Below, in pieces: positions 1 to 46,986 of a DNA stretch of 64,000 nucleotides. Under the pieces are notes generated by a model, which was given only the letters and a program-made list of their open reading frames with translations, was not told the DNA's origin and made no database searches. This stretch comes from Escherichia coli (GTDB lineage: Bacteria > Pseudomonadota > Gammaproteobacteria > Enterobacterales > Enterobacteriaceae). Position 1 is the first letter of the stretch; every line of letters begins with the position of its first letter. The stretch is taken from NCBI RefSeq assembly GCF_003991155.1, contig NZ_CP031295.1; one strand, written 5' to 3'. The position numbers and the translations under genes were made by a program.

Positions 1-1
1 T

Positions 2-328
2 GCGGACTACTTAATCCATGATTTGCAGACGGGTCACTTCGTGACAGTACTGCGTTTTATTTCGCCACTGATGGTTCGTCTTGGCGTACCTGAAAGGCGA
101 TTTTATCAACTGCTGGCAGCAGTGTTGAGTGATTACATGAAAAAACATCCACAAATGTCAGAGCGTTTTGCGCTTTTCTCACTTTTCAGGCCACAAATCA
201 TTCGCGTGGTGCTGAACCCGGTAAAACTGACCTGGCCTGATCTGGATGGCGGCAGCCGCATGCTGCCGAATTACCTTGAGGATCTGCAAAATCCGCTGTG
301 GCTGGTAACTCAGGAATATGAATCATGA
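2..328 (+). CDS. iucC: aerobactin synthase IucC, C-terminal fragment (5' end lies outside the window)
   Basis: ORF runs in from the window edge and its stop overlaps the iucD start by 4 bp; identity inferred from position upstream of iucD-iutA, not from a recognised motif. Confidence 0.6.
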   Translation, partial: ADYLIHDLQTGHFVTVLRFISPLMVRLGVPERRFYQLLAAVLSDYMKKHPQMSERFALFSLFRPQIIRVVLNPVKLTWPDLDGGSRMLPNYLEDLQNPLWLVTQEYES

Positions 329-1602
329 AAAAAAGTGTCGATTTTATTGGTGTAGGGACAGGGCCATTTAATCTCAGCATTGCTGCGTTGTCACATCAGA
401 TCGAAGAACTGGACTGTCTCTTCTTTGATGAACATCCTCATTTTTCCTGGCATCCGGGTATGCTGGTACCGGATTGTCATATGCAGACCGTCTTTCTGAA
501 AGATCTGGTCAGTGCTGTTGCACCTACAAATCCCTACAGTTTTGTTAACTATCTGGTGAAGCACAAAAAGTTCTATCGCTTCCTTACAAGCAGACTACGT
601 ACAGTATCCCGTGAAGAGTTTTCTGACTACCTCCGCTGGGCTGCTGAAGATATGAATAACCTGTATTTCAGTCATACCGTTGAAAACATTGATTTCGATA
701 AAAAACGTCGATTGTTTCTGGTGCAAACCAGCCAGGGAGAATATTTTGCCCGCAATATCTGCCTTGGTACAGGAAAACAACCTTATTTACCACCCTGTGT
801 GAAGCATATGACACAATCCTGTTTCCATGCCAGTGAAATGAATCTTCGTCGGCCGGACCTTAGTGGAAAACGGATAACCGTGGTTGGTGGAGGACAGAGT
901 GGTGCAGACCTGTTCCTTAATGCATTACGCGGGGAATGGGGAGAAGCGGCGGAAATAAACTGGGTCTCCCGGCGTAATAATTTTAACGCACTGGATGAGG
1001 CTGCTTTTGCTGATGAGTATTTTACACCTGAATATATTTCAGGCTTCTCCGGACTGGAGGAAGATATTCGCCATCAGTTACTGGATGAGCAGAAAATGAC
1101 ATCGGATGGCATCACTGCCGATTCTTTACTGACCATTTATCGTGAGTTGTACCACCGTTTTGAAGTTCTGAGAAAACCAAGAAATATCCGTCTGCTACCC
1201 AGCCGCTCGGTAACAACTCTGGAAAGTAGTGGTCCTGGCTGGAAGTTGCTGATGGAGCATCATCTGGATCAGGGCAGGGAGAGCCTGGAAAGTGATGTGG
1301 TGATTTTCGCCACAGGTTACCGTTCTGCGTTGCCACAAATACTTCCCTCACTGATGCCCCTGATCACCATGCACGATAAGAACACCTTTAAAGTGCGTGA
1401 TGACTTCACTCTGGAATGGAGTGGCCCGAAAGAGAACAACATCTTCGTGGTCAACGCCAGTATGCAAACCCATGGCATCGCCGAACCCCAGCTCAGCCTG
1501 ATGGCATGGAGATCTGCACGTATTCTTAATCGCGTAATGGGACGTGATTTATTCGATCTCAGTATGCCGCCCGCCCTGATTCAGTGGCGCAGCGGCACCT
1601 AG
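325..1602 (+). CDS. iucD: L-lysine N6-monooxygenase IucD (aerobactin biosynthesis)
   Basis: 425 aa ORF; N-terminal dinucleotide-binding motif GVGTGPFN and second GGGQSG motif typical of this flavin monooxygenase; immediately upstream of iutA. Confidence 0.9.
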   Translation: MKKSVDFIGVGTGPFNLSIAALSHQIEELDCLFFDEHPHFSWHPGMLVPDCHMQTVFLKDLVSAVAPTNPYSFVNYLVKHKKFYRFLTSRLRTVSREEFSDYLRWAAEDMNNLYFSHTVENIDFDKKRRLFLVQTSQGEYFARNICLGTGKQPYLPPCVKHMTQSCFHASEMNLRRPDLSGKRITVVGGGQSGADLFLNALRGEWGEAAEINWVSRRNNFNALDEAAFADEYFTPEYISGFSGLEEDIRHQLLDEQKMTSDGITADSLLTIYRELYHRFEVLRKPRNIRLLPSRSVTTLESSGPGWKLLMEHHLDQGRESLESDVVIFATGYRSALPQILPSLMPLITMHDKNTFKVRDDFTLEWSGPKENNIFVVNASMQTHGIAEPQLSLMAWRSARILNRVMGRDLFDLSMPPALIQWRSGT

Positions 1603-1683
1603 GGAAAACGCAGCCGGAGGCTGCTTCTTTAACTCGCTACACAGCATCTTTGGGCTGATTTTTTCCGCCCGTATGGAGGAATA

Positions 1684-3885
1684 ATGATGATAAGCAAAAA
1701 GTATACGCTTTGGGCTCTCAACCCACTGCTTCTTACCATGATGGCGCCAGCAGTCGCTCAACAAACCGATGATGAAACGTTCGTGGTGTCTGCCAACCGC
1801 AGCAATCGCACCGTAGCGGAGATGGCGCAAACCACCTGGGTTATCGAAAACGCCGAACTGGAACAGCAGATTCAGGGCGGCAAAGAGCTTAAAGACGCAC
1901 TGGCTCAGCTGATCCCTGGCCTTGACGTCAGCAGCCGGAGCCGCACCAACTACGGTATGAATGTGCGTGGCCGCCCGCTGGTCGTGCTGGTTGACGGCGT
2001 GCGTCTCAACTCTTCACGTACCGACAGCCGACAACTGGACTCTATAGATCCTTTTAATATCGACCATATTGAAGTGATCTCCGGTGCGACGTCCCTGTAC
2101 GGCGGCGGCAGTACCGGTGGCCTGATCAACATCGTGACCAAAAAAGGCCAGCCGGAAACCATGATGGAGTTTGAGGCTGGCACCAAAAGTGGCTTTAGCA
2201 GCAGTAAAGATCACGATGAACGCATTGCCGGAGCTGTCTCCGGCGGAAATGAGCATATCTCCGGACGTCTTTCCGTGGCATATCAGAAATTTGGCGGCTG
2301 GTTTGACGGTAACGGCGATGCCACCTTGCTTGATAACACCCAGACCGGCCTGCAGTACTCCGATCGGCTGGACATCATGGGAACTGGTACGCTGAACATC
2401 GATGAATCCCGGCAGCTTCAGTTGATCACACAGTACTATAAAAGCCAGGGCGACGACGATTACGGGCTTAATCTCGGGAAAGGCTTCTCTGCCATCAGAG
2501 GGACCAGCACGCCATTCGTCAGTAACGGGCTGAATTCCGACCGTATTCCCGGCACTGAGCGGCATTTGATCAGCCTGCAGTACTCTGACAGCGCTTTTCT
2601 GGGACAGGAGCTGGTCGGTCAGGTTTACTACCGCGATGAGTCGTTGCGATTCTACCCGTTCCCGACGGTAAATGCGAACAAACAGGTGACGGCTTTCTCT
2701 TCGTCACAGCAGGACACCGACCAGTACGGCATGAAACTGACTCTGAACAGCAAACCGATGGACGGCTGGCAAATCACCTGGGGGCTGGATGCTGATCATG
2801 AGCGCTTTACCTCCAACCAGATGTTCTTCGACCTGGCTCAGGCAAGCGCTTCCGGAGGGCTGAACAACAAGAAGATTTACACCACCGGGCGCTATCCGTC
2901 GTATGACATCACCAACCTGGCGGTCTTCCTGCAATCAGGCTATGACATCAATAATCTCTTTACCCTCAACGGTGGCGTACGCTATCAGTACACTGAAAAC
3001 AAGATTGATGATTTCATCGGCTACGCGCAGCAACGGCAGATTGCCGCCGGGAAGGCTACATCCGCCGACGCCATTCCTGGCGGCTCAGTCGATTACGACA
3101 ACTTCCTGTTCAACGCCGGTCTGCTGATGCACATCACCGAACGCCAGCAGGCATGGCTCAACTTCTCCCAGGGCGTGGAGCTGCCGGACCCGGGTAAATA
3201 CTATGGTCGCGGCATCTATGGTGCTGCAGTGAACGGCCATCTTCCTCTAACAAAGAGTGTGAACGTCAGCGACAGCAAGCTGGAAGGCGTGAAAGTCGAT
3301 TCTTATGAGCTGGGCTGGCGCTTTACTGGCAATAATCTGCGTACCCAAATCGCGGCCTACTATTCGATTTCTGATAAGAGCGTGGTGGCGAATAAAGATC
3401 TGACCATCAGCGTGGTGGACGACAAACGCCGTATTTACGGCGTGGAAGGTGCGGTGGACTACCTGATTCCTGATACTGACTGGAGTACCGGAGTGAACTT
3501 CAACGTGCTGAAAACTGAGTCGAAAGTGAACGGTACCTGGCAGAAATACGATGTGAAGACAGCAAGCCCATCAAAAGCGACAGCCTACATTGGCTGGGCA
3601 CCGGACCCGTGGAGTCTGCGCGTGCAGAGCACCACCTCCTTTGACGTGAGCGACGCGCAGGGCTACAAGGTCGATGGCTATACCACCGTGGATCTGCTCG
3701 GCAGTTATCAGCTTCCGGTGGGTACACTCAGCTTCAGCATTGAAAACCTCTTCGACCGTGACTACACCACTGTCTGGGGGCAGCGTGCACCACTGTACTA
3801 CAGCCCGGGTTACGGCCCAGCGTCACTGTACGACTACAAAGGCAGGGGCCGAACCTTTGGTCTGAACTACTCTGTGCTGTTCTGA
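1684..3885 (+). CDS. iutA: ferric aerobactin outer-membrane receptor IutA (TonB-dependent)
   Basis: 733 aa ORF; signal peptide, TonB box ETFVVSA near N-terminus, C-terminal aromatic residue; RBS GGAGG upstream. Confidence 0.9.
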   Translation: MMISKKYTLWALNPLLLTMMAPAVAQQTDDETFVVSANRSNRTVAEMAQTTWVIENAELEQQIQGGKELKDALAQLIPGLDVSSRSRTNYGMNVRGRPLVVLVDGVRLNSSRTDSRQLDSIDPFNIDHIEVISGATSLYGGGSTGGLINIVTKKGQPETMMEFEAGTKSGFSSSKDHDERIAGAVSGGNEHISGRLSVAYQKFGGWFDGNGDATLLDNTQTGLQYSDRLDIMGTGTLNIDESRQLQLITQYYKSQGDDDYGLNLGKGFSAIRGTSTPFVSNGLNSDRIPGTERHLISLQYSDSAFLGQELVGQVYYRDESLRFYPFPTVNANKQVTAFSSSQQDTDQYGMKLTLNSKPMDGWQITWGLDADHERFTSNQMFFDLAQASASGGLNNKKIYTTGRYPSYDITNLAVFLQSGYDINNLFTLNGGVRYQYTENKIDDFIGYAQQRQIAAGKATSADAIPGGSVDYDNFLFNAGLLMHITERQQAWLNFSQGVELPDPGKYYGRGIYGAAVNGHLPLTKSVNVSDSKLEGVKVDSYELGWRFTGNNLRTQIAAYYSISDKSVVANKDLTISVVDDKRRIYGVEGAVDYLIPDTDWSTGVNFNVLKTESKVNGTWQKYDVKTASPSKATAYIGWAPDPWSLRVQSTTSFDVSDAQGYKVDGYTTVDLLGSYQLPVGTLSFSIENLFDRDYTTVWGQRAPLYYSPGYGPASLYDYKGRGRTFGLNYSVLF

Positions 3886-3957
3886 CCGGTATTCCTTTAC
3901 AACAAAGGTACGCTGATATCAACATGGCCGCTGACAGCCAAGTTGATATCATATAAT

Positions 3958-4018
3958 ACACGACATAATCTGTAGTCAGGGAGGATAGACTCTTTACTGA
4001 CTACAGATTATGTCGTGT
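3958..4018. repeat. perfect 22-bp inverted repeat (arms 3958-3979 and 3997-4018, 17-bp spacer) downstream of iutA
   Basis: read directly: acacgacataatctgtagtcag ... ctgactacagattatgtcgtgt; a second 10-bp inverted repeat tgatatcaac/gttgatatca lies at 3914-3951. Confidence 0.8.
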
Positions 4019-4369
4019 TCCGTGCTCATTTCCTCAAAAAAATACAAGAAAAGAATTAGTATTCTAACAAAAAGTGAAATAAATTGTATCAAACTCCCTC
4101 TTTTAATCCTGTTGAGTAAATCAGCTTTTGCAATAGGATTGAAAGAGTGTAAGTGGAATCTCTTCCGGATACTCGTTACCACCGTGGCTAGAATATCTAC
4201 GGCTGCGGGCCAGTAATAGATTAAGTGATAACAGCTGTCTGGAAATGTAGGGGCGTATCCACTAATCATAATCATTGTGAGATAAATATTACGGGGCATT
4301 TTATAATGAATAAAGGTGATGCTGCCAACTTACTGATTTAGTGTATGATGGTGTTTTTGAGGTGCTCCA

Positions 4370-4645
4370 GTGGCTTCTGTTTCTATCAGCTGTCCCTCCT
4401 GTTCAGCTACTGACGGGGTGGTGCGTAACGGCAAAAGCACCGCCGGACATCAGCGCTATCTCTGCTCTCACTGCCGTAAAACATGGCAACTGCAGTTCAC
4501 TTACACCGCTTCTCAACCCGGTACGCACCAGAAAATCATTGATATGGCCATGAATGGCGTTGGATGCCGGGCAACTGCACGCATTATGGGCGTTAGCCTC
4601 AACACGATTTTACGTCACTTAAAAAACTCAGGCCGCAGTCGGTAA
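4370..4645 (+). CDS. insA: IS1 InsA
   Basis: 91 aa [17 protein letters not shown]... with zinc-finger-like CxxC pairs; starts at nt 56 of the element as in IS1. Confidence 0.9.
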
Positions 4646-4689
4646 CCTCGCGCATACAGCCGGGCAGTGACGTCATCGTCTGCGCGGAA

Positions 4690-5067
4690 ATGGACGAACA
4701 GTGGGGATACGTCGGGGCTAAATCGCGCCAGCGCTGGCTGTTTTACGCGTATGACAGGCTCCGGAAGACGGTTGTTGCGCACGTATTCGGTGAACGCACT
4801 ATGGCGACGCTGGGGCGTCTTATGAGCCTGCTGTCACCCTTTGACGTGGTGATATGGATGACGGATGGCTGGCCGCTGTATGAATCCCGCCTGAAGGGAA
4901 AGCTGCACGTAATCAGCAAGCGATATACGCAGCGAATTGAGCGGCATAACCTGAATCTGAGGCAGCACCTGGCACGGCTGGGACGGAAGTCGCTGTCGTT
5001 CTCAAAATCGGTGGAGCTGCATGACAAAGTCATCGGGCATTATCTGAACATAAAACACTATCAATAA
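4690..5067 (+). CDS. insB: IS1 InsB (made as InsAB' transposase by -1 frameshift from insA)
   Basis: 125 aa ORF in the -1 frame relative to insA, ending just inside the right IR. Confidence 0.85.
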
Positions 5068-5264
5068 GTTGGAGTCATTACCGCCTTGACCATCAGATAG
5101 TTATTTTGGTGCTAGGGATACTGAGTGTGAACAGTTAGCGCGCGTCCTCGCCAGTTAGCTCGCTACGCTCGGTTACACGACGGCTACGAGTACTAGTGAT
5201 AATTATTGACTGAGGTATGTGCTCTTCCTGTTTCCTTTTTTGATGTGTTGCTCTCATTTTAAAC

Positions 5265-5357
5265 AACTTTGCGGTTTTTTGACTACTTTGCAATTTTGTT
5301 GTTGCTTTGCAATAAAATGCAAGATTAAATGAAAATATGCAAAGCAATGATTAAAGG
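5265..5357 (+). promoter_or_regulatory. sopA promoter/operator region
   Basis: AT-rich stretch upstream of sopA with repeated CTTTGC/GCAAAG hexamers (ctttgcaat, gctttgcaat, gcaaagcaat); F SopA autorepresses via such repeats. Confidence 0.5.
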
Positions 5358-6533
5358 ATGTTCAGAATGAGACTCATGGAAACACTTAACCAGTGCATAA
5401 ACGCTGGTCATGAAATGACGAAGGCTATCGCCATTGCACAGTTTAATGATGACAGCCCGGAAGCGAGGAAAATCACCCGACGCTGGAGAATAGGTGAAGC
5501 AGCGGATTTAGTTGGAGTATCTTCTCAGGCTATCAGGGATGCCGAGAAAGCAGGCCGGCTACCGCACCCGGATATGGAAATACGAGGACGGGTTGAGCAA
5601 CGTGTTGGTTATACAATTGAACAAATTAATCATATGCGTGACGTGTTTGGTACGAGACTACGACGTGCTGAAGACGTATTTCCGCCGGTGATTGGAGTTG
5701 CTGCTCATAAAGGGGGCGTTTACAAAACCTCTGTTTCTGTTCATCTTGCTCAGGATCTGGCTCTGAAGGGATTACGTGTTCTGCTCGTGGAAGGTAACGA
5801 CCCCCAGGGAACAGCATCGATGTATCACGGCTGGGTGCCAGATCTTCATATTCATGCAGAGGATACTCTCCTTCCCTTCTATCTTGGGGAAAAGGACGAT
5901 GTCACTTATGCAATAAAGCCTACTTGCTGGCCTGGGCTTGACATTATTCCTTCCTGTTTGGCTCTGCACCGCATTGAAACTGAGCTAATGGGCAAATTTG
6001 ATGAAGGTAAATTGCCCACCGATCCACACCTGATGCTCCGACTGGCCATTGAAACCGTCGCTCATGACTATGATGTCATTGTCATTGACAGCGCGCCTAA
6101 CCTAGGTATCGGCACGATTAATGTTGTATGTGCTGCTGATGTGTTGATTGTCCCCACGCCTGCTGAGTTGTTCGACTACACTTCCGCTCTGCAGTTTTTC
6201 GATATGCTTCGTGATCTGCTCAAAAACGTAGATCTTAAAGGATTCGAGCCTGATGTACGTATTTTGCTTACCAAATACAGTAATAGTAATGGTTCTCAGT
6301 CCCCGTGGATGGAGGAGCAAATTCGGGACGCCTGGGGAAGCATGGTCCTAAAAAATGTTGTGCGTGAAACGGATGAAGTTGGTAAAGGTCAGATCCGGAT
6401 GAGAACTGTTTTTGAACAGGCTATTGATCAACGCTCTTCAACAGGTGCCTGGAGAAATGCCCTTTCTATTTGGGAACCTGTCTGCAATGAAATTTTCGAT
6501 CGTTTGATTAAACCACGCTGGGAGATTAGATAA
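5358..6533 (+). CDS. sopA: plasmid partition ATPase SopA (ParA family, F type)
   Basis: 391 aa ORF; deviant Walker A KGGVYKTS; matches F SopA as I remember it. Confidence 0.95.
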
Positions 6534-7504
6534 TGAAGCGTGCGCCTGTCATTCCAAAACATACGATTAAGACTCAACCGCTTGAAGATACTCCGTCATC
6601 GGCACCAGCTGCACCGATGGTGGATTCGTTAATTGCGCGCGTAGGAGCTATGGCTCGTGGCAATGCTATTACTTTGCCTGTATGTGGTAGGGACGTGAAA
6701 TTTACCCTTGAGGTGCTCCGGGGAGATAGTGTTGAGAAGACCTCTCGGGTATGGTCAGGTAATGAACGTGACCAGGAACTGCTTACCGAAGACGCCCTGG
6801 ATGATCTTATCCCTTCTTTTCTACTGACAGGTCAGCAGACACCAGCATTCGGTCGAAGAGTGTCTGGGGTCATAGAAATTGCCGATGGGAGCCGCCGTCG
6901 TAAAGCTGCTGCACTTACAGAAAGTGATTATCGAGTTCTGGTTGGTGAGCTGGATGATGAGCAGATGGCTGCATTGTCCAGATTGGGTAACGATTATAGG
7001 CCAACAAGTGCTTATGAACGTGGTCAGCGTTATGCAAGCCGATTGCAGAATGAATTTGCTGGAAATATTTCTGCGCTGGCTGATGCAGAAAATATTTCAC
7101 GTAAGATTATTACCCGCTGTATCAACACAGCTAAACTGCCTAAATCAGTTGTTGCTCTTTTTTCTCATCCCGGTGAACTATCTGCCCGGTCAGGTGATGC
7201 ACTTCAAAGAGCTTTTACAGATAAAGAAGAATTACTTAAGCAGCAGGCATCTAACCTTCACGAGCAGAAAAAAGCAGGAGTGATATTTGAAGCTGAAGAA
7301 GTCATCACTCTTTTAACGTCTGTGCTTAAAACGTCATCTGCCTCAAGAACTAGCTTAAGCTCACGACATCAGTTTGCTCCTGGAGCGACAGTGTTGTACA
7401 AGGGCGATAAAATGGTGTTAAACCTAGATAGATCTCGTATTCCAACTGAGTGTATAGAGAGAATTGAAGCCATTCTTAAGGAACTTGAAAAAGCGGCACT
7501 TTGA
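6533..7504 (+). CDS. sopB: plasmid partition protein SopB (ParB family, F type)
   Basis: 323 aa ORF overlapping the sopA stop; matches F SopB; followed by sopC repeats. Confidence 0.95.
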
Positions 7505-7583
7505 TGCGGCACGTTTTAGTCTACATTTATCTGTCTTTACTTAATTTCCTTTAGCACAGGCTAGAAAACATAACTAACTGGCC

Positions 7584-8100
7584 TGAATATTATATCTGGG
7601 ACCACGGTCCCAGTTGTATTGTCGGTCTGATAATCAGTCTGGGACCACGGTCCCACTCATATTGTCGGTCTGATAATCAGTCTGGGACCACGGTCCCACT
7701 CATATTGTCGGTCTGATTATCGGTCTGGGACCACGGGCCCACTCATATTGTTAGTCTGCTAATCAGTCTGGGACCGCGGTCCCACTCGTATTGTTGGTCT
7801 GCTAATCAGTCTGGGACCACGGTCCCACTCATATTGTCGGTCTGCTAATCAGTCTGGGACCACGGTCCCACTCATATTGTCGGTCTGCTAATCAGTCTGG
7901 GACCACGGTCCCACTCATATTGTCGGTCTGCTAATCAGTCTGGGACCACGGTCCCACTCATATTGTTGGTCTGATTATCGGTCTGCGACCACGGTCCCAC
8001 TCATATTGTTAGTCTGATAATCAGTCTGGGACCGCGGTCCCACTCGTATTGTTGGTCTGCTAATCAGTCTGGGACCACGGTCTCACTTGTATTGTCGATC
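7584..8100 (+). repeat. sopC: sopC centromere: 12 tandem 43-bp repeats
   Basis: 12 copies of a 43-bp unit each containing the palindrome TGGGACCACGGTCCCA, with a few point variants. Confidence 0.9.
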
Positions 8101-8499
8101 TGATTATCAGCGTGAGACTACGATTCCATTAATGCCTGCCAGTGAGTGTGTGGAACATATCTTGGCCAGTGGCTTGGTCTGTGATGTGCTGCGTATACCG
8201 GGTGAACCGCCCCGCCGCTTGTTTGACCGCTATATTCTGCGGGAGTTTTCTTGGAGGCACGGGATGAAATCCGCAGCATGGCGGATGCCCTGGCAAAAAT
8301 CCGGAAATGATGACGATGGCGGGGAAAATCCCCGCCTTTTTCCTGCCGGTCCCCGGACAGAGCACAAAGGAAGTCGCCGCCGGCTCCGCTTTACCCGGCC
8401 ATGCGGGGCATGGCCTTGTGGGGGTTCAGTTATGTGGACGTCGAGTCGTGTGCGGGCTGTGCCGTGCCTCCATCTTAGCCGGGCTGGCGTTGATGCAAG

Positions 8500-8860
8500 G
8501 GGCAACGCCGTTTCGCAAACCGCGCTTCACGTCGTTGCGGCGGGTCCCTGCCCGTTGTTCTGTCCGGTGCCATTCACCTGTTTAAGCCCCTGTCGCCGGG
8601 GGCTGATACAGCCACAACCGTCTCCGCCAGTCCAGGGGTGAAATGTACATCCCGCAAAACTTTTTGCCCAAAAGCAGGCAAAAACTTTTGCGGGATGTAC
8701 ATTTCACCCCCGGACAGTCGTTTCCGTCCGTGGCAGTGATGCCCCTTGCGGCGAAGGTTCTCAAAAAGGTGATGGTGAATACCGGAGGGAACAAAAGGCA
8801 GGTCCCCGCAAAACGTCAAAACCGCGGCTCCCGAAACTCAAAAGATGATGGGGGCTGAAA
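8500..8860 (+). promoter_or_regulatory. Frpo/ssi-like leading-region element, copy 1 (single-strand promoter/priming signal)
   Basis: ~360 bp highly structured non-coding DNA directly upstream of ssb, containing a 60-bp perfect palindrome (8643-8702); repeated at 12125-12478; F leading regions carry such ssDNA promoter elements. Confidence 0.55.
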
Positions 8861-8883
8861 ACATCAACAGAAGGAGGCACATC

Positions 8884-9423
8884 ATGGCAGTTCGTGGCAT
8901 TAACAAGGTCATTCTCGTAGGACGCCTGGGAAAAGATCCGGAAGTCCGTTACATCCCCAACGGGGGCGCAGTGGCAAACCTGCAGGTGGCCACATCAGAA
9001 AGCTGGCGTGACAAACAGACGGGGGAGATGCGGGAGCAGACAGAATGGCATCGTGTGGTGCTGTTCGGCAAGCTCGCGGAAGTGGCAGGTGAATATCTGC
9101 GCAAGGGCGCGCAGGTCTACATCGAAGGTCAGCTTCGCACCCGTAGCTGGGAGGATAACGGTATCACCCGTTACGTCACCGAAATTCTTGTTAAGACCAC
9201 GGGCACCATGCAGATGCTGGGACGTGCCGCAGGTGCTCAGACTCAGCCGGAAGAGGGGCAACAGTTCAGCGGTCAGTATCAGCCGGAACCACAGGCGGAG
9301 GCCGGTACGAAAAAAGGAGGCGCAAAAACGAAAGGCCGTGGACGTAAGGCCACGCAGCCGGAGTCGCAGCCGCAACCGCCGGAGAGTGACGATTACGGGT
9401 TTTCAGATGATATCCCGTTCTGA
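8884..9423 (+). CDS. ssb: plasmid single-stranded DNA-binding protein
   Basis: 179 aa from MAVRGINKV; OB-fold N-terminal region, Gly/Gln/Pro-rich linker, acidic C-terminus DDIPF; RBS AGGAGG. Confidence 0.9.
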
Positions 9424-9437
9424 ACGACTGACTGTGA

Positions 9438-9713
<276 letters not shown>

Positions 9714-9992
9714 GAGAGGTGCCCGACGCGCGAACGTCCGCCGCAGATTATCGCAGCCCTGAATAAGGCAGGGCTGTCCGGTGCCGCACGGGACGCGGAG
9801 AAGATGAAGAAAGGTGATGCGGCTGAACATGCAGAGCACCATATGAAAGACAACCGCTGGGTGCCTGGCTGGATGTGTGCACCACATCCACAGACGGATA
9901 CCACTGAACGCACCGATAACCTGGCTGATGCCGCCTGATAAACAACCACACCGCCCCGCCGGAGACGGGGCGGCAGCAAGGGAGATACCGTG

Positions 9993-10427
9993 ATGAAAAC
10001 TGAACTGACCCTGAATGTATTACAGACCATGAGCGCACAGGAATATGAAGATATCCGGGCAGCCGGAAGTGATGAACGTCGTGAGCTGACACACGCCGTG
10101 ATGCGGGAACTGGATGCGCCGGACAACTGGACGATGAACGGCGAGTACGGCAGCGAGTTTGGCGGATTTTTCCCCGTCCAGGTCCGTTTCACGCCTGCCC
10201 ACGAACGTTTCCACCTGGCGTTATGTTCACCGGGCGATGTCTCTCAGGTCTGGGTGCTGGTTCTGGTGAATGCCGGTGGTGAGCCGTTTGCGGTGGTTCA
10301 GGTACAGCGGCGGTTTGCACCGGAAGCCGTCAGCCATTCACTGGCACTGGCGGCGTCACTGGACGCGCAGGGGTACAGCGTCAGTGACATCATCCATATC
10401 CTGATGGCGGAAGGAGGTCAGGCATGA
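9993..10427 (+). CDS. psiB: PsiB, plasmid SOS inhibition protein (anti-RecA)
   Basis: 144 aa from [13 protein letters not shown]...; matches F/R100 PsiB. Confidence 0.9.
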
Positions 10428-11140
10428 GCGCACGTTCACAGGCACTGGTTCCTCTCAGCACAGAGCAACAGGCCGCATGGCGGGCGGTGGCGGAGACCGA
10501 AAAACGCCGCCATCAGGGTAACACGCTGGCTGAATATCCGTATGCGGGGGCGTTTTTCCGCTGTCTGAACGGAAGCCGCAGGATATCGCTGTCTGACCTG
10601 CGATTTTTCATGCCGTCCCTGACCGCAGAAGAACTGCACGGCAACCGTCTTCAGTGGCTGTATGCCATCGATGTGCTGATTGAAACACAGGGCGAGGTTG
10701 CCTCCTTCCCCTCCGGTGATGCAGCAGAGCGCTTGTTCCCGTCGGTGCGGTTTCGTGTCAGGGAACGCAGTCGCCATAAATCCGCGCTGGTCATGCAGAA
10801 GTACAGCCGCCAGCAGGCGAGGGAGGCAGAGCAGAAAGCCCGTGCGTACCAGGCGCTGGTCGCTCAGGCTGAAATCGAACTGGCATTCCATTCGCCGGAA
10901 ACAGTCGGAAGCTGGCATGCACGCTGGAGTGACCGGGTGGCAGAGCATGACCTGGAAACCCTGTTCTGGCAGTGGGGCGAGCGTTTTCCGTCACTGGCCG
11001 GAATGGAACGCTGGCAGTGGCAGGATATGCCATTCTGGCAGGTCATCGCAGAGGCTGGTATGGCGGCAAGGGTGGTCGGTCATGCTGTTCGTGAGATGGA
11101 GCGGTGGATGGTGCCGAACAAACTCCGGGAGGCAGCGTGA
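10424..11140 (+). CDS. psiA: PsiA, plasmid SOS inhibition protein A
   Basis: 238 aa ORF overlapping the psiB stop; matches F PsiA. Confidence 0.9.
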
Positions 11141-11334
11141 TGCGGCAACAATCACACGGATTTCCCGTGAACGGTCTGAATGAGCGGATTATTTTCAGGG
11201 AAAGTGAGTGTGGTCAGCGTGCAGGTATATGGGCTATGATGTGCCCGGCGCTTGAGGCTTTCTGCCTCATGACGTGAAGGTGGTTTGTTGCCGTGTTGTG
11301 TGGCAGAAAGAAGATAGCCCCGTAGTAAGTTAAT

Positions 11335-11400
11335 TTTCATTAACCACCACGAGGCATCCCTATGTCTAGTCCACATCAGGATAGCCTCTTACCGCGCTTT
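11335..11400 (-). ncRNA. sok: putative Sok/FlmB antisense RNA of the hok/mok module
   Basis: inferred by position: antisense to the mok start/hok leader; exact ends not determined. Confidence 0.35.
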
Positions 11401-11574
11401 GCGCAAGGAGAAGAAGGCCATGAAACTACCACGAAGTTCCCTTGTCTGGTGTGTGTTGATCGTGTGTCTCACACTGTTGATATTCACTTATCTGACACGA
11501 AAATCGCTGTGCGAGATTCGTTACAGAGACGGACACAGGGAGGTGGCGGCTTTCATGGCTTACGAATCCGGTAA
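11362..11574 (+). CDS. mok: Mok (modulation of killing), overlapping reading frame of the hok module
   Basis: 70 aa ORF in a different frame, covering almost all of hok. Confidence 0.7.
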
Positions 11575-11578
11575 GTAG
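11420..11578 (+). CDS. hok: Hok/FlmA family type I toxin (52 aa)
   Basis: [52 protein letters not shown]: single transmembrane helix plus conserved C-terminus of Hok; below the ORF-track size cut-off, found by reading the sequence. Confidence 0.85.
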
Positions 11579-11585
11579 CAACCTG

Positions 11586-11610
11586 GAGGCGGGCGCAGGC
11601 CCGCCTTTTC
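11586..11610 (+). terminator. rho-independent terminator after hok
   Basis: GC hairpin ggcgggcgcaggcccgcc followed by TTTT. Confidence 0.6.
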
Positions 11611-12124
11611 AGGACTGATGCTGGTCTGACTACTGAAGCGCCTTTATAAAGGGGCTGCTGGTTCGCCGGTAGCCCCTTTCTCCTTGCTGATGTTGTACGG
11701 GCATGAACAACCTGACTTCAGGAAGGTCGTTTCCCTTCAGGAACGGGGATGAACGCGCGCCTGCGGCGCCCGTTCTTTTCCCCCGCCTTCTCTGGTTATG
11801 GCCTGTCAGAAATCACATCACCTTCCCTGTGATTATTCTCTTTTTCTTCCTGCTCTGATTCTGACTACTGCAGTGTTGTCCTGTCTGCCGGGCGTACCTT
11901 CGGCTCCCGGCTGCCTGGCGGCATCCGGTCGTCAGGCCCGACTCCGACAGGCAGCTGCTGGCGCACCTGCCAGTCTCCGCCGAACCCGCTGGCGCGGTTT
12001 CGGGCTGTCGCTACGGTCCGATGCGTGAAAACCCCTGGCTTGCAGCGACCGTTCCGGTCGCGCCGCCTCTGTCGCGCCGTGACCTGCGCTCCCGGCATCC
12101 CGGCAAAAGGCGCCGGGATGTAAG

Positions 12125-12478
12125 GCGCAACGCCGTTTCGCAAACCGCGCTTCACGTCGTTGCGGCGGGTCCCTGCCCGTTGTTGTGTCCGGTGCCATTC
12201 ACCAGTTTAAGCCCCTGTCGCCGGGGGCATAGACAGCCACAACCGTCTCCGCCAGTCCAGGGGTGAAATGCACATCCCGCAAAACTTTTTGCCCAGAAGC
12301 AGGCAAAAACTTTTGCGGTCTGCCCCCGGACAGTCGTTTCCGGCCGTGGCAGTGATGCCCCATGCGGCGAAGGTTCTCAAACAGGTGATGGTGAATACCG
12401 GAGGGAACAAAAGGCAGGTCCCCGCAAAACGTCAAAACCGCGGCTCCCGAAACTCAACAGATGATGGGGGCTGAAAAC
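12125..12478 (+). promoter_or_regulatory. Frpo/ssi-like leading-region element, copy 2
   Basis: ~90% identical direct repeat of 8500-8860, directly upstream of the 95-aa ORF; lacks ~20 bp of the distal palindrome arm. Confidence 0.55.
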
Positions 12479-12903: not shown

Positions 12904-13725
12904 ATGCGATTAGCTTCCCGTTTTGGTCGGTATAATTCCATCCGCCGTGAACGTCCTTTAACGGATGATGAATTAATGCAGTTCGTGCCTTCGGTATTTT
13001 CCGGTGATAAACATGAGTCCCGGAGTGAACGTTATACGTATATTCCAACAATCAATATCATCAATAAGTTACGTGATGAAGGTTTCCAGCCATTCTTTGC
13101 CTGTCAGAGTCGGATTCGTGATTTGGGACGTCGCGAATACAGTAAACATATGTTACGTCTTCGCAGGGAAGGGCATATTAACGGACAGGAAGTTCCTGAA
13201 ATTATCCTGCTTAATTCACATGATGGTTCATCCAGTTATCAGATGATCCCCGGAATTTTTCGTTTTGTCTGCACAAATGGCCTGGTGTGCGGAAATAATT
13301 TTGGCGAAATCCGCGTTCCACATAAAGGTGATATTGTCGGGCAGGTTATCGAGGGAGCGTATGAAGTGCTCGGTGTCTTTGATAAGGTCACTGATAATAT
13401 GGAGGCGATGAAAGAAATTCATCTTAACAGTGACGAGCAACATTTATTTGGCAGAGCTGCACTGATGGTCAGGTATGAAGATGAAAATAAAACGCCAGTG
13501 ACACCTGAACAGATAATTACTCCCCGTCGTCGGGAAGACAAACAGAACGATCTCTGGACAACCTGGCAGCGGGTTCAGGAGAATATGATAAAAGGTGGAT
13601 TATCGGGGCGAAGTGCCTCCGGGAAAAATACCAGGACAAGAGCCATTACAGGTATTGATGGTGATATAAGAATCAACAAGGCGTTATGGGTGATTGCCGA
13701 ACAGTTCAGAAAGTGGAAGTCATGA
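12904..13725 (+). CDS. orf273-like leading-region protein
   Basis: 273 aa from MRLASRFGRY... with RBS AAAGGAG; size and position match F orf273; the ORF-track 5' extension rejected for lack of RBS. Confidence 0.7.
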   Translation: MRLASRFGRYNSIRRERPLTDDELMQFVPSVFSGDKHESRSERYTYIPTINIINKLRDEGFQPFFACQSRIRDLGRREYSKHMLRLRREGHINGQEVPEIILLNSHDGSSSYQMIPGIFRFVCTNGLVCGNNFGEIRVPHKGDIVGQVIEGAYEVLGVFDKVTDNMEAMKEIHLNSDEQHLFGRAALMVRYEDENKTPVTPEQIITPRRREDKQNDLWTTWQRVQENMIKGGLSGRSASGKNTRTRAITGIDGDIRINKALWVIAEQFRKWKS

Positions 13726-22199: not shown

Positions 22200-24784
22200 G
22201 TGAATAACCCACTTGAGGCCGTCACTCAGGCGGTTAACTCCCTCGTCACAGCACTGAAACTGCCTGACGAATCCGCAAAGGCCAATGAAGTTCTGGGCGA
22301 AATGAGCTTCCCGCAGTTCAGCCGTCTGCTGCCGTACCGTGATTACAACCAGGAATCCGGTCTGTTCATGAATGACACCACGATGGGCTTTATGCTGGAA
22401 GCCATCCCCATCAATGGGGCGAATGAGTCCATTGTGGAGGCCCTCGATCACATGCTGCGCACCAAACTGCCGCGCGGTATTCCGTTGTGTATCCATCTGA
22501 TGTCCAGTCAGCTGGTTGGTGACAGGATTGAATACGGGCTGCGTGAGTTCTCTGGTCAGGTGAACAGGCTGAACGGTTTAACGCCATTACCCGGGCCTAT
22601 TATATGAAAGCGGCAGCGACACAGTTTCCGCTGCCGGAGGATGAATCTGCCCGACCCTGCGCCATTACCGGTGTTTATCTCGTACTGTTCTCCTCGAAGA
22701 AAAAAGCCGGGCCGACATTCTGGAAATGGAAAACCGGTGAAAATCATCCGGGCGTCGTTACAGGGGCCAGTATCACCACACAGACGGTGGATGCACAGGC
22801 CTTTATCGATATTGTCGGGGAGATGATTAACCATAACCCGGACTCCTGTACCCGAAAAGACGTCAGCTGGACCCGTATTCTGATCTGAATTATCAGTGTG
22901 TGGAGGACAGTTTTGATCTGAAAGTCCGGGCTGATTACCTGACGCTGGGCCTGCGTGAGAACGGCAGGAACAGCACGGCCCGCATCCTGAATTTCCATCT
23001 GGCCCGTAACCCGGAAATCGCCTTCCTGTGGAACATGGCCGACAACTACAGCAACCTGCTGAACCCGGAACTGTCCATCTCCTGTCCGTTCATCCTGACG
23101 CTGACTCTGGTGGTGGAAGACCGGTGAAACCCACAGCGAAGCCAACCTGAAGTACATGGACTCGAGAAAAGTCGAAGACCTCCTATGCCAAATGGTTTCC
23201 GTCCGTGGAGAAAGAGGCGAAGGAGTGGGGAACTGCGTCAGCGGCTGGGCTCCGGTCAGTCCTCTGTCGTGTCCTACTTCCTCAACATCACAGCATTCTG
23301 CAAGGACAATAATGAAACGGCGCTGGAAGTGGAGCAGGACATCCTGAACAGCTTCCGTAAAACGGTTTTGAGCTGATTTCACCGCGCTTTAACCACATGC
23401 GCAATTTCCTGACCTGCCTTCCCTTTATGGCCGGGAAAGGGCTGTTTAAACAGCTGAAAGAGGCCGGTGTGGTTCAGCGCGCAGAGAGCTTTAATGTGGC
23501 CAACCTGATGCCGTTAGTGGCGGATAACCCCGACACCGGCAGGTCTGCTGGCACCCACCTACCGTAACCAGCTGGCGTTTATCGATATTTTCTTCCGGGG
23601 ATGAATAACACCAACTACAACATGGCGGTCTGTGGCACCTCCGGCCGGTAAAACCGGGCTGATACAGCCACTTATCCGCAGCGTGCTGGACTCCGGGGCT
23701 TTGCCGTGGTGTTTGACATGGGGATGGATATAAGTCCCTGTGTGAGAACATGGGCGGGTGTATCTGGACGGTGAAACCCTGCGTTTTAACCCGTTTGCGA
23801 ACATCACCGATATTGACCAGTCAGCGGAGCGTGTCCGTGACCAGTTGTCGGTGATGGCCAGCCCCAACGGTAACCGGATGAAGTGCATGAAGGTCTGCTG
23901 CTGCAGGCGGTCAGGCCTCTCTGGCTAAAAAGAACACAGGCGCGCATCGATGATGGTGGATTTCCTGAAAACGCCCGTGATAACGACCAGTATGCGAGTC
24001 ACCGACCATCCGCAGCCGTCTGGATGAAATGATTGTCCTGCTGGATCATATACGCCGGCGGCACTTACGGCCAGTATTTTAACTCTGATGAGCCGTCCCT
24101 GCGGGATGACGCAAAAATGGTGGTGCTGGAGCTGGGCGGACTGGAAGACCGTCCGTCACTGCTGGTTGCGGTGATGTTCTCCCTGATTATCTACATCGAG
24201 AACAGGATGTACCGCACGCCGCGTAACCTCAAGAAACTGAACGTTATTGATGAAGGCTGGCGTCTGCTGGACTTCAAAAATCACAAGGTCGGTGAATTTA
24301 TTGAGAAAGGCTACCGTACGGCCCGCCGTCATACCGGTGCCTATATCACCATCACACAGAACATCGTCGACTTTGACTCTGATAAGGCCTCCAGTGCTGC
24401 CCGCGCGGCATGGGGTAACTCCTCCTACAAAATTATCCTCAAACAGAGTGCGAAGGAGTTCGCGAAATACAACCAGCTGTATCCGGACCAGTTCCTGCCA
24501 CTGCAGCGTGACATGATTGGTAAGTTCGGTGCGGCCAAAGATCAGTGGTTCAGTTCCTGCTGCAGGTGGAAAACCATTCCCCGCACCGTCTGTTTGTGGA
24601 CCCGTTAAGCCGCGCCATGTACAGCTCTGACGGCCCGGATTTTGAGTTTGTGCAGCAGAAGCGTAAAGAGGGGCTGAGTATTCATGAGGCGGTATGGCAG
24701 CTGGCGTGGAAGAAGTCAGGGCCGGAGATGGCTTCGCTGGAAGCCCGGCTGGAAGAACATGAGAAATACAGGAGTGTGGCATGA
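22200..24784 (+). pseudogene. traC: traC (T4SS ATPase) disrupted by multiple frameshifts
   Basis: N-terminal 120 aa intact (22200-22560), then the TraC peptide continues through many short pieces in changing frames (e.g. 22900-23127, 23185-23376, 24033-24608, 24545-24784); overall length fits traC. Confidence 0.8.
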
Positions 24785-25162
24785 GTTCAACGCAGAAACC
24801 CGCCGACGTCACGGCAGAACAACGCATCCACTGGTGGTGGATGGTGCCGGATGCCCGGCAATGGTGTTACTGAACGCAGCCGTCAGTTACGGCATTGTCA
24901 GACTGAACGCACCGGTGACTGTCGCCTTCAACATGAAACAGACCGTGGATGCGTTTTTGACAGCGCCAGTCAGAAACAACTGTCAGAAGCACAGTCAAAA
25001 GCCCTTTCAGCGCGTTTAACACGGCACTGGAAGCCAGCCTGCAGGCGTGGCAGCAGAAACACCACGCGGTCATTCTGGTGTCGCCTGCTGTGGTACAGGG
25101 GCACCGGATATCACCGGGAAATCCAGCAGGATATTGCCCGGCGAATGAGGGCGGAACCATGA
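24781..25162 (+). pseudogene. trbI: trbI disrupted by frameshifts
   Basis: starts MSSTQKPADVTAE... at 24781; frame lost repeatedly; C-terminal ...IARRMRAEP readable in another frame. Confidence 0.65.
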
Positions 25163-25777
25163 GATGCCGGGGCTGATTGCCCTGCTGATATGGGGCAGAG
25201 GCCGCCGCCGATCTTGGTACCTGGGGCGATCTGTGGCCGGTAAAGGAGCCGGACATGCTGACGGTGATCATGCAGCGCCTGACGGCACTGGAGCAGTCCG
25301 GTGAGATGGGCCGGAAAATGGATGCCTTTAAGGAGCGGGTGATCCGCAACAGTCTGCGGCCCCTGCCGTGCCCGGTATCGGACGCACGGAGAAATACGGC
25401 AGCCGGTTGTTTGACCCGTCCGTCAGACTGGCTGCGGATATCCGGGATAACGAAGGGCGGGTGTTTGCCCGTCAGGGTGAAGTGATGAATCCGCTGCAGT
25501 ATGTTCCTTTAACCAGACGCTGTATTTCATCAATGGCGATGATCCGGCGCAGGTGGCCCGATGAAACGCCAGACGCCGCCCACACTGGAGAGCAAAATTA
25601 TCCTCGTGCAGGGCAGTATCCGGAGATGCAGAAAGCGCTGGACAGCCGTATTTACTTTGACCAGAACGGTGTGCTCTGCCAGCGCCTCGGCATTGATCAG
25701 GTCCCGGCACGGGTGCGCCGTTCCCGGCGATCGCTTCCTGAAGGTGGAATTTATTCCGGCAGGAGGGCAGAAAATGA
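25159..25777 (+). pseudogene. traW: traW disrupted by frameshifts
   Basis: MRCRGLIALLIWGQ... start at 25159; TraW-like pieces appear in several frames (25255-25485, 25368-25937). Confidence 0.65.
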
Positions 25778-26758
25778 AGCGAGGCCTGTGGCTGCTGATG
25801 TTCTTCCTTTCGCCGGTCATGTCCCTGCGGCGTCTGCGGATTCTGCCTGTGAGGGGCGTTTTGTAAACCCGATCACGGATATCTGCTGGAGCTGTATTTT
25901 CCCGCCTCGCTGGGCAGTATCAAAGTCAGTCAGGTAAGGTCCCCGACACGGCGAACCCGTCGATGCCCATTCAGATTTGTCCGGCACCGCCGCCGCTGTT
26001 CAGGCGTATCGGGCTGGCCATTGGTTACTGGGAGCCGATGGCGCTGACGGACGTCACCCGGTCACCGGGATGCATGGTTAACTGGGCTTCAGCCTGCCGG
26101 CTTTGGTAAAACGGCACAGGAACGGCGAAAAGGATGAGAAGCAGGTGAACGGGCGTTCTATCACGTTCACTGGTACAAATACCCGCTGACGTACTGGCTG
26201 AACATCATCACATCGCTGGGCTGTCTGGAAGGTGGTGACCTGGATATCGCTTATCTTTCTGAAATTGACCCCACCTGGACGGACAGCAGCCTGACCACCA
26301 TTCTCAATCCGGAAGCTGTCATCTTTGCCAATCCGATAGCACAGGGGGCCTGTGCAGCAGATGCCATTGCCAGCGCCTTTAATATGCCTCTCGATGTTCT
26401 GTTCTGGTGTGCCGGTTCGCAGGGCAGTATGTACCCGTTCAATGGCTGGGTGAGTAATGAGTCCAGTCCGTTGCAGTCCTCCCTGCTGGTCAGTGAACGC
26501 ATGGCGTTCAAGCTGCACCGTCAGGGCATGATTATGGAAACCATCGGGAAAAATAACGCCGTCTGTAATGAATATCCGTCCCCAATCCTGCCCAAAGAAC
26601 GCTGGCGTTACCAGATGGTGAATATGTACCCGGACAGCAGACAGTGCCACCCGTTCGGGCGCAGTGTGACCCGCTGGGAAACCGGGAAAAATCCGCCCAA
26701 TACAAAGAAAAACTTCGGCTACCTGATGTGGCGTAAACGTAACTGTGTCTTCCTGTGA
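25774..26758 (+). pseudogene. traU: traU disrupted by frameshifts (last 124 codons intact)
   Basis: MKRGLWLLMF... start at 25774; frame lost by ~25900 and regained by 26384 (ORF 26384-26758 is the TraU C-terminus). Confidence 0.7.
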
Positions 26759-26763
26759 GGTGA

Positions 26764-27405
26764 ATGATGAAGCTGAGTATGAAATCTCTGGCAGCACTGC
26801 TGATGATGCTGAACGGGGCGGTTATGGCGTCAGAAAACGTGAACACTCCTGAAAACCGCCAGTTCCTGAAGCAGCAGGAAAATTTAAGCAGACAACTGCG
26901 TGAAAAACCTGACCATCAGCTGAAAGCCTGGGCGGAGAAGCAGGTGCTGGAAAACCCCCTTCAGCGTTCAGATAACCATTTCCTGGATGAGCTGGTTCGT
27001 AAACAGCAGGCTTCGCAGGACGGGAAACCCCGGCAGGGTGCTCTGTATTTTGTGTCGTTTTCCATTCCCGAAGAGGGGCTGAAACGAATGCTGGGCGAAA
27101 CCCGGCACTACGGTATTCCGGCCACACTGCGGGGCATGGTGAACAATGACCTGAAGACCACCGCTGAAGCTGTGTTGTCCCTGGTGAAAGACGGAGCGAC
27201 TGATGGTGTTCAGATCGACCCGACGCTGTTTTCACAGTACGGCATTCGCACTGTACCGGCACTGGTGGTGTTCTGCAGTCATGGATACGACATCATCCGG
27301 GGAAACCTGCGGGTCGGCCAGGCGCTGGAGAAAGTGGCCGCCACGGGTGACTGCCGGCAGGTGGCTCATGATTTACTGGCAGGGAAAGGAGATTCCGGGA
27401 AATGA
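26764..27405 (+). CDS. trbC: TrbC pilus assembly protein
   Basis: 213 aa with signal peptide; conserved order. Confidence 0.85.
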   Translation: MMKLSMKSLAALLMMLNGAVMASENVNTPENRQFLKQQENLSRQLREKPDHQLKAWAEKQVLENPLQRSDNHFLDELVRKQQASQDGKPRQGALYFVSFSIPEEGLKRMLGETRHYGIPATLRGMVNNDLKTTAEAVLSLVKDGATDGVQIDPTLFSQYGIRTVPALVVFCSHGYDIIRGNLRVGQALEKVAATGDCRQVAHDLLAGKGDSGK

Positions 27406-29210
27406 AACGTATTTTACCTCTGATACTGGCTCTGGTTGCCGGCATGGCACAGGCTGACAGCAACAGTGATTACCGGGCCGGCTCTGATTTTGCTCACCAG
27501 ATCAAAGGACAGGGAAGCAGCAGTATTCAGGGCTTTAAGCCACAGGAGAGTATCCCCGGCTATAACGCGAATCCGGACGAGACAAAATATTACGGTGGCG
27601 TGACTGCCGGCGGGGATGGCGGCCTGAAAAATGACGGCACCACGGAATGGGCGACCGGTGAAACCGGAAAAACCATCACAGAGTCATTCATGAACAAGCC
27701 GAAAGACATTCTTTCACCGGATGCACCGTTTATCCAGACCGGCAGGGATGTGGTGAACCGGGCTGACAGCATTGTGGGAAACACCGGGCAGCAGTGCAGT
27801 GCGCAGGAGATTAGCCGGAGTGAATACACGAATTACACCTGTGAGCGGGATTTACAGGTGGAGCAGTACTGCACACGAACTGCCCGTATGGAGCTGCAGG
27901 GGAGTACCACATGGGAAACCCGGACGCTGGAGTATGAAATGAGTCAGCTACCTGCACGTGAAGTGAATGGTCAGTATGTTGTCTCCATTACCTCTCCCGT
28001 TACCGGTGAAATTGTCGATGCGCATTACAGCTGGAGTCGTACTTACCTGCAGAAGAGTGTACCTATGACAATTACAGTACTGGGAACCCCACTGAGCTGG
28101 AATGCCAAATACTCAGCAGATGCCTCATTTACACCAGTACAGAAAACACTGACTGCCGGTGTTGCTTTTACGTCATCTCACCCCGTCCGGGTCGGGAATA
28201 CAAAATTCAGACGTCATACGGCAATGAAGCTGCGTCTGGTTGTCAGGGTAAAAAAAGCCTCGTACACCCCGTATGTTGTCTGGTCTGAAAGCTGCCCGTT
28301 CAGCAAGGAGCTGGGGAAACTGACAAAAACAGAATGTACGGAGGCTGGCGGGAACAGGACGCTGGTGAAAGATGGTCAGTCATACAGCATGTACCAGAGC
28401 TGCTGGGCATACCGGGACACGTATGTCACGCAGTCAGCAGACAAGGGAACCTGTCAGACCTACACCGACAATCCTGCCTGTACCCTGGTGTCACACCAGT
28501 GCGCCTTTTACTCCGAAGAAGGTGCCTGTCTGCATGAATATGCCACCTACTCCTGCGAGTCAAAAACATCAGGGAAAGTGATGGTCTGTGGGGGAGACGT
28601 CTTCTGTCTCGATGGCGAATGCGATAAGGCTCAGAGCGGGCAGAGTAATGATTTTGCCGAAGCCGTTTCTCAGCTGGCGGCACTGGCCGCAGCAGGTAAG
28701 GATGTTGCGGCGCTGAACGGGGTGGATGTCCGTGCTTTCACCGGTCAGGCGAAATTTTGTAAGAAGGCTGCAGCCGGATACAGCAACTGCTGTAAGGACA
28801 GCGGCTGGGGACAGGATATCGGGCTGGCCAAATGCAGCAGTGATGAAAAGGCCCTGGCTAAAGCAAAATCAAACAAACTGACCGTCAGTGTCGGAGAGTT
28901 CTGTTCGAAGAAAGTGCTGGGTGTCTGCCTGGAGAAAAAACGCAGTTACTGTCAGTTTGATTCGAAGCTGGCGCAGATAGTCCAGCAGCAGGGGCGCAAC
29001 GGACAGCTGCGTATCAGTTTTGGCAGTGCGAAGCATCCTGACTGTCGGGGGATTACGGTTGATGAGCTGCAGAAAATTCAGTTCGACAGACTGGATTTCA
29101 CTAACTTCTACGAAGACCTGATGAATAACCAGAAAATCCCGGACAGTGGCGTTCTGACGCAGAAAGTGAAAGAGCAGATTGCTGACCAGCTGAAACAGGC
29201 AGGACAGTAA
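27402..29210 (+). CDS. traN: TraN mating-pair stabilisation outer-membrane protein
   Basis: 602 aa, signal peptide, Cys-rich C-terminal half. Confidence 0.9.
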   Translation: MKRILPLILALVAGMAQADSNSDYRAGSDFAHQIKGQGSSSIQGFKPQESIPGYNANPDETKYYGGVTAGGDGGLKNDGTTEWATGETGKTITESFMNKPKDILSPDAPFIQTGRDVVNRADSIVGNTGQQCSAQEISRSEYTNYTCERDLQVEQYCTRTARMELQGSTTWETRTLEYEMSQLPAREVNGQYVVSITSPVTGEIVDAHYSWSRTYLQKSVPMTITVLGTPLSWNAKYSADASFTPVQKTLTAGVAFTSSHPVRVGNTKFRRHTAMKLRLVVRVKKASYTPYVVWSESCPFSKELGKLTKTECTEAGGNRTLVKDGQSYSMYQSCWAYRDTYVTQSADKGTCQTYTDNPACTLVSHQCAFYSEEGACLHEYATYSCESKTSGKVMVCGGDVFCLDGECDKAQSGQSNDFAEAVSQLAALAAAGKDVAALNGVDVRAFTGQAKFCKKAAAGYSNCCKDSGWGQDIGLAKCSSDEKALAKAKSNKLTVSVGEFCSKKVLGVCLEKKRSYCQFDSKLAQIVQQQGRNGQLRISFGSAKHPDCRGITVDELQKIQFDRLDFTNFYEDLMNNQKIPDSGVLTQKVKEQIADQLKQAGQ

Positions 29211-44657: not shown

Positions 44658-44676
44658 TACAGGAAGACAAACGCTG

Positions 44677-45420: not shown

Positions 45421-45474
45421 CGGGTGTGGTATCTTTGGCCGCAAGAGGATGATTCGTCAGAGGCAGAACACAGC

Positions 45475-46978: not shown

Positions 46979-46986
46979 GCTGCCGG

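Follow-up and report, generated by a model that had tools for sequence, protein, structure and literature searches.

A RepFIA-less sopABC partition cassette beside IS1 and the aerobactin operon in Escherichia coli: a ColV/ColBM joint in which RepFIA was lost, very probably, before IS1 arrived

The sopABC genes of plasmid F form a partition system that stabilises heterologous replicons, and their occurrence as an autonomous stability cassette, and beside IS1-flanked aerobactin genes and RepFIB in ColV/ColBM plasmids, is already known. This article describes such a cassette in a stretch of 64,000 nucleotides from an Escherichia coli contig (NZ_CP031295.1, assembly GCF_003991155.1), referred to at its full length as the window, and addresses how it came to stand next to a copy of the insertion sequence IS1 and apart from the RepFIA replicon that accompanies it in F. 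Positions 4315-8110 of the window very probably represent the canonical ColV/ColBM joint, in which an IS1-bounded virulence cargo bay on the left adjoins an intact, self-contained F-type sopABC on the right and RepFIA was lost before IS1 was acquired. The useful correction concerns this history: by the time IS1 arrived RepFIA had very probably already gone, and the separation of sop from repE has happened at least twice.

In F the gene order is ccdA-ccdB-resD-repE-sopA-sopB, which agrees with what an earlier, sequence-only reading of the window had stated when it pointed to a sopABC cassette without the RepFIA genes repE and ccdAB. That absence was confirmed within the 64-kb window, plasmid DNA to the left of position 1 lying outside the data. 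When the whole window was compared with complete F by blastn, nothing matched F 40537-49565; the F proteins RepE, CcdA and CcdB, used as tblastn queries, returned only noise (E at least 0.97, and at least 1.4 for CcdA and CcdB), and neither repE and the iterons (incB/incC) next to sop nor ccdAB upstream, the marks of a RepFIA module, were found. Homology to F starts at window position 5142 (F 49566), 59 bp to the right of IS1 and not at the IS1 end; the F-homology breakpoints are 38238, 40536 and 49566. The intervening 59-bp linker was found in 587 records of PLSDB, only upstream of this sop allele, and 581 of them have the same IS1 junction. A scan of GTDB genomes with the linker returned one misbinned contig, again with that junction.

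The order of the two events was addressed through relatives free of IS1. Metagenome contigs were scanned for the 59 bp preceded by anything but the last base of IS1, and contig OBZF01001512.1 was found to have this linker and the same sop promoter but to lack IS1. The upstream DNA of this contig led to plasmid A of E. coli M10 (NZ_CP010201), which is of type IncFIB/IncFIC/IncI-gamma with no IncFIA and in which the order after RepFIB is unique DNA (about 2.2 kb), an IS3 remnant, 1.3 kb like F 39197-40536 (92.7% identical), the hexamer TTATAA, the 59 bp and sopAB. In both molecules the joint reads ...AACTATCGCGTTTA TTATAA GCCTTGACC..., at 10839-12240 of the segment NZ_CP010201.1 96000-116581 and at 3036-3090 of the metagenome-contig segment. 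It consists of F 40536, a 65-bp linker and F 49566, between which F carries an extra 9 kb (pif, ccdAB, resD, repE, incC). From the 59 bp onward the IS1-free relatives are 99.8% identical to the ColV type at the nucleotide level, and the accession of their SopA is the same. The 59 bp lie about 5.5 kb from RepFIB, and no RepE, CcdA or CcdB was detected by tblastn between RepFIB and sop. Unlike the window, these relatives have neither IS1 nor the aerobactin and sit genes. Since they already lack repE and ccdAB at the same joint, the loss of RepFIA very probably predates the IS1 copy at 4315-5082.

In plasmids of the ColV type, IS1 lies between TTATAA and GCCTTGACC of the M10-like sequence, and GCCTTGACC is present once at the corresponding site of the IS1-free relative. 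Compared with the M10 type, the ColV type has exchanged about 4.6 kb (7556-12181 of the NZ_CP010201.1 96000-116581 segment) for 1.3 kb of other DNA plus the unit IS1-cargo-IS1. The change is read most parsimoniously as insertion of IS1 into an M10-like sequence, because the reverse would need a replacement that ended exactly at the IS1 terminus.

A second loss of repE beside sop was found in plasmid p1 of E. coli JNU (NZ_CP083264.1), from which F 48294-49442 (repE, incC) has been lost, with ccdAB, resD and an F-type sopAB kept. This loss is independent and has a different joint; sop without repE has thus arisen more than once. The joint lies at 12979-13003 of the NZ_CP083264.1 segment, and about 20 similar plasmids from cattle have the same combination of genes kept and lost.

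The sop promoter region begins inside a conserved non-coding block of about 120 bp (F 49500-49618) that in F lies between the iterons and the par operon. The same block occupies the same position in an IncR rep-par unit (window 63275-63397, - strand), where it is 87% identical to that of F despite ParA and ParB proteins that are only 25-31% identical between F and IncR, and it is held by about 5000 PLSDB plasmids. The ColV/M10 sop allele retains only its right-hand 50 bp or so (window 5142-5200, + strand), which looks like a truncation; because this part was kept, the sop unit probably once stood next to a RepE-type iteron replicon. It is conceivable, although rather unlikely, that the joint 5141/5142 is the scar of an old RepFIA excision, the block either having a function of its own or marking a boundary at which recombination is favoured, so that type Ia par cassettes could be swapped between replicons. 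ColV-type plasmids would then provide an example from nature of a centromere cassette that has parted from its cognate replicon at a defined site. A role of the block as structured RNA or terminator was dropped (fold z = -0.08, and no Rfam match in the sop region).

In the history proposed here, a sop unit linked to a RepE-type iteron replicon would have lost pif, ccd, repE and incC, leaving the joint 5141/5142 with the 65-bp linker fused to DNA like that at 40.5 kb of F, beside RepFIB, a state that M10 plasmid A would preserve. Later, IS1 would have landed 59 bp upstream of the joint and, together with an inverted partner beside RepFIB, would have put cargo (sit and aerobactin in this plasmid, sit lying to the left of the window) in place of about 4.6 kb of the spacer between RepFIB and sop, adjacent deletions and recombination between the IS1 copies erasing the target duplications. 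The IS1-framed arrangement would then have become fixed in the lineage now represented by about 580 sequenced plasmids. As in F, SopB would load on the twelve 43-bp repeats of sopC, and the SopA ATPase, repressing its own promoter, would position the plasmid copies; the cassette would serve whatever replicons are present on the plasmid (RepFIB and RepFII), with no need for repE. The anatomy of the region, the sequence identities, the counts of junctions and the relatives without IS1 were observed directly, and the order of these events and the activity of the cassette are deduced. Several points weigh against this history. The polarity from M10 type to ColV type rests on parsimony and not on a dated phylogeny, and a RepFIA copy may lie elsewhere on the source plasmid. 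A blastn search with 'distant' settings for an origin of the 59-65 bp linker matched the 59 bp to this sop lineage only. A simple sigma-70 scan of 5083-5366 called no promoter on the + strand, the integrity of the sop promoter being predicted from its conservation with F.

Two other histories were considered. In one, which is improbable, F is the derived form: the order RepFIB-spacer-sop seen in M10 would be ancestral, F would have gained the 9-kb pif-ccd-RepFIA block between 40536 and 49566, and sop would never have been linked to RepFIA in this lineage. M10-type plasmids and F are indeed collinear on both sides of the 9-kb segment, and breakpoints 40536 and 38238 act as module boundaries in several lineages, but the iteron-to-par block common to F and the very divergent IncR, of which ColV and M10 plasmids hold the right part only, argues against this view, as does JNU p1, which demonstrates deletion of repE beside sop. 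The other history, also improbable, is the IS1-mediated deletion or inversion proposed by the sequence-only reading, in which the IS1 copy at 4315-5082 itself stripped ccdAB, repE and incC out of a RepFIA-sop module like that of F and placed aerobactin next to sop. The missing target duplication, the lack of repE and ccdAB in the window, the aerobactin island bounded by inverted IS1 copies in related plasmids and the position of IS1 within about 65 bp of the point where, in the IS1-free relative, homology to F breaks off towards RepFIB are in its favour. Against it, 59 bp separate IS1 from the F homology, M10 plasmid A and OBZF01001512.1, with the identical joint and already without RepFIA, largely refute it, and the divergence of sop from F (5-7% of nucleotides, mostly synonymous) indicates that the cassette is not a recent derivative of the F module. 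The outline of that proposal, a centromere kept and an initiator lost, stays plausible in view of the truncated iteron-to-par block; its agent and its timing do not, the joint being 59 bp from IS1 and older than it.

The cassette whose history is reconstructed above is complete (Table 1). SopA passed the NCBIfam equivalog NF010259 over its full length (residues 1-388; 872 bits against a cut-off of 725) and SopB passed NF010252 (636 bits against 274). SopA is identical to that of F at 387 of 388 residues (99.7%) and SopB at 311 of 322 (97%). At the nucleotide level the identities to F are 94.9% for sopA and 93.0% for sopB (92-95% in the comparison of the two cassettes), and 49 of the 59 differences in sopA and 53 of the 68 in sopB fall at third codon positions. 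Because the substitutions are mostly of this kind, the allele appears to be under purifying selection, old and not a recent copy of that of F. The first in-frame ATG of sopA (5358) lies 275 bp past IS1, the distance given by the earlier reading, and the start that matches F SopA lies 284 bp past it; sopA ends and sopB starts at the same position, with an overlap at the sopA stop. The promoter region contains the motif CTTTGC, which we take from the literature to be the SopA operator motif, three times on the + strand and once on the - strand, as in F.

The centromere is an array of 12.0 copies of the 43-bp unit with a 7-bp inverted repeat in each. Its SopB boxes (TGGGACCNNGGTCCCA) recur 12 times in 43-bp phase, nine of them perfect and three with one mismatch (chance expectation 0.02). 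Gene order, gene sizes, the number and length of the sopC repeats, the SopB box and the four CTTTGC motifs are all those of F, whereas upstream of sop F has ccdAB-resD-repE-incC and the window has IS1 and the 59-bp linker. The cassette has the sequence features of a type Ia partition system, a putative operator among them, and is predicted to be active. The losses of repE beside sop show that a partition cassette can persist when the replicon that brought it has gone, and a plasmid of this kind, although its type is not IncFIA, should be incompatible with F-type RepFIA plasmids through sop-based partition.

Table 1. Features of the sopABC joint and its surroundings, in window coordinates.
Feature	Position	Strand	Basis and remarks
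Aerobactin operon, 3' part: iucC 3' end (partial, cut by window start), iucD (325-1602), iutA (1684-3885)	1-3885	+	Open reading frames and annotation of near-identical plasmids
Spacer between iutA and IS1	3886-4314		Count of the iutA-side/IS1 junction in PLSDB
IS1, complete, 768 bp	4315-5082	+	Flanks ATGAATAAA (left) and GCCTTGACC (right)
Linker, 59 bp, no counterpart in F	5083-5141	+	Alignment and junction counts
sop promoter/operator region	5142-5366	+	Homologous to F 49566-49788; alignments and blast
sopA, type Ia Walker ParA ATPase, autorepressor	5367-6533	+	NF010259
sopB, ParB-family centromere-binding protein	6533-7504	+	NF010252
sopC centromere	7595-8110	+	43-bp unit repeated 12 times in tandem; one SopB box of 16 bp per unit
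Remnant of F 56170-56528 (360 bp, 87%)	8140-8501	+	blastn against F
Frpo2-like single-strand promoter element (predicted)	8480-8875	- (transferred strand)	F homology and DNA fold
ssb, first leading-region gene after Frpo2	8884-9423 (start approximate)	+	Open reading frame, annotation, NCBIfam
Second Frpo-type copy, at the Frpo1 position, upstream of a ygeA-like open reading frame	12030-12478	-	88% identical to F 58174-58621, collinear

The aerobactin operon lies on the other side of IS1, as had been stated, and its 3' part is the inner cargo of the IS1-bounded bay; the junction between the iutA side and IS1 occurs in 557 PLSDB records. Within the spacer, an open reading frame of 101 codons (3994-4299, - strand) has no NCBIfam match, is unannotated in related RefSeq records and is probably not a gene. 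The IS1 copy is the only one in the window. Its flanks, ATGAATAAA and GCCTTGACC, show no direct target-site duplication of 8-9 bp such as a simple insertion would leave, in agreement with the sequence-only reading, and because no target duplication is present this IS1 took part in a rearrangement. The partner IS1 that the same reading asked for is present in related plasmids, outside the window: the copy at 4315-5082 is the right-hand member of an inverted pair, whose other member adjoins RepFIB upstream of sitA and has the outer flank GAAAAAGCA on its RepFIB side (p3PCN033, p1658/97). In these two relatives the outer flanks GAAAAAGCA and GCCTTGACC show no 9-bp duplication of a composite transposon. 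Target duplications of the composite-transposon and inversion types were rejected, since no pairing of the four IS1 flanks matches, direct or displaced; a displaced duplication, named beforehand as an observation that would speak against the IS1 scenario, was accordingly not found. Between 4500 and 5000, five positions of this IS1 differ from both IS1 copies of p3PCN033, which agree with each other there, a pattern that replacement of the IS1 copy or gene conversion could explain.

The IS1/sop junction is shared by 581 PLSDB plasmids, and the arrangement, fixed in about 580 sequenced plasmids, is no peculiarity of this one. It is the standard, common and already published ColV/ColBM backbone, and a complete sopABC in ColV-type plasmids was described with pAPEC-1 (PMC2626276). 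Plasmids pAPEC-1, pAPEC-O1-ColBM, p3PCN033 and about 580 in PLSDB agree with the window in the two IS1 junctions, in the sop allele and in having the short leading region. Plasmid p3PCN033, typed IncFIB/IncFIC with no IncFIA, has the order RepFIB, inverted IS1, sitABCD, iucABCD-iutA, IS1, sopAB, ssb, psiB, hok, oriT and tra; it is identical to window 1-8000 except for five substitutions inside IS1, and the two diverge from about 8.5 kb on (leading region, tra polymorphisms). Plasmid p1658/97 (NC_004998) has the same outer flanks of both IS1 copies (GAAAAAGCA on the RepFIB side, GCCTTGACC on the sop side) and the same sop allele, but its inter-IS1 cargo differs and includes neither sit nor aerobactin; the inner edge coincides with a site downstream of sitD in the ColV type, as an IS1-adjacent deletion would yield. 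Because p1658/97 combines both outer flanks with other cargo, the two inverted IS1 copies are a fixed frame with changing contents, that is, a cargo bay for the exchange of virulence genes.

On the other side of the cassette, sopC was said to run almost straight into the Frpo/ssb region and the leading region to be much shorter than that of F. Both statements hold. Position 8110 is followed by the 360-bp remnant, by Frpo2-like sequence from 8492 and by ssb, and the stretch between the sopC end and traM measures 6.8 kb in the window against 14.0 kb in F. From 8492 the window matches F 58262-59487 (Frpo2, ssb, DUF905) and from 9740 it matches F 61298 onward. By blastn, three segments of F are absent from the leading region of the window: the 3.7 kb directly after sopC (F 52504-56170, with a methylase and a DUF1380 gene), F 56528-58262 (an antirestriction gene and another DUF1380 gene) and F 59487-61298 (a large ParB-like open reading frame). 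Both Frpo elements, ssb, psiBA and hok/sok are retained. A practical consequence is a short leading region without the methylase and antirestriction genes of F. Plasmid p1658/97 has a longer leading region, with antirestriction, DUF1380, DUF3560 and methyltransferase genes. Because p1658/97 and M10 plasmid A have the first deletion (after sopC) in common and yet keep the antirestriction unit, the leading region varies unit by unit.

Frpo1 and Frpo2 of F have been defined elsewhere (PMC9849209). Folded as the transferred (-) strand, the Frpo2-like element of the window forms a hairpin of about 330 nucleotides (-126.6 kcal/mol, z = -14.1), and it matches the two Frpo copies of F (58262-58630 and 63651-64011) at 94% identity. 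A long imperfect hairpin upstream of ssb, as in the Frpo elements of F, makes it a predicted promoter. Positions 8111-8500 were rejected as a further hairpin of this kind (z = -1.7), and an open reading frame at 8087-8641 (+ strand) lacks a family match and is unlikely to be a gene. In Rfam, sok alone (11246-11422) scored above threshold; sub-threshold matches (mir-576 at 8627-8718 and others) were dismissed as chance or as artefacts of the hairpin.

The rest of the molecule has other affinities. A second type Ia partition pair, of IncR type (ParB 60817-61794, ParA 61791-62996, - strand; 25-31% identical to SopB and SopA), lies beside a tandem array of 14.5 units of 36 bp (63388-63910) with umuDC-like DNA nearby. 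This array is probably that of the IncR iterons, and related records place the start of the IncR rep gene immediately beyond the end of the window. Two loci of ParABS type thus occur on the molecule, a hybrid of ColV-like, IncFII and IncR segments. At 46-64 kb it carries an IncFII/Tn3/IS26 region and an IncR fragment, a combination present in no single database record, and no record in PLSDB or among complete E. coli genomes covers at least 80% of window 44-64 kb. The best partial match is pR1041-el-168k (NZ_OR095750), another IncFII plasmid, which has parM but lacks sop and is 100% identical over 46000-58100 (IncFII repA, Tn3 with blaTEM-1, IS26). From this comparison, the resistance and RepFII part appears to have an ancestry distinct from that of the ColV-like part. 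Within the ColV-like part, differences from p3PCN033 are clustered at 8500-10500 (Frpo2/ssb/psiB) and 22500-28900 (part of tra), which suggests recombinational mosaicism in the leading and transfer regions.

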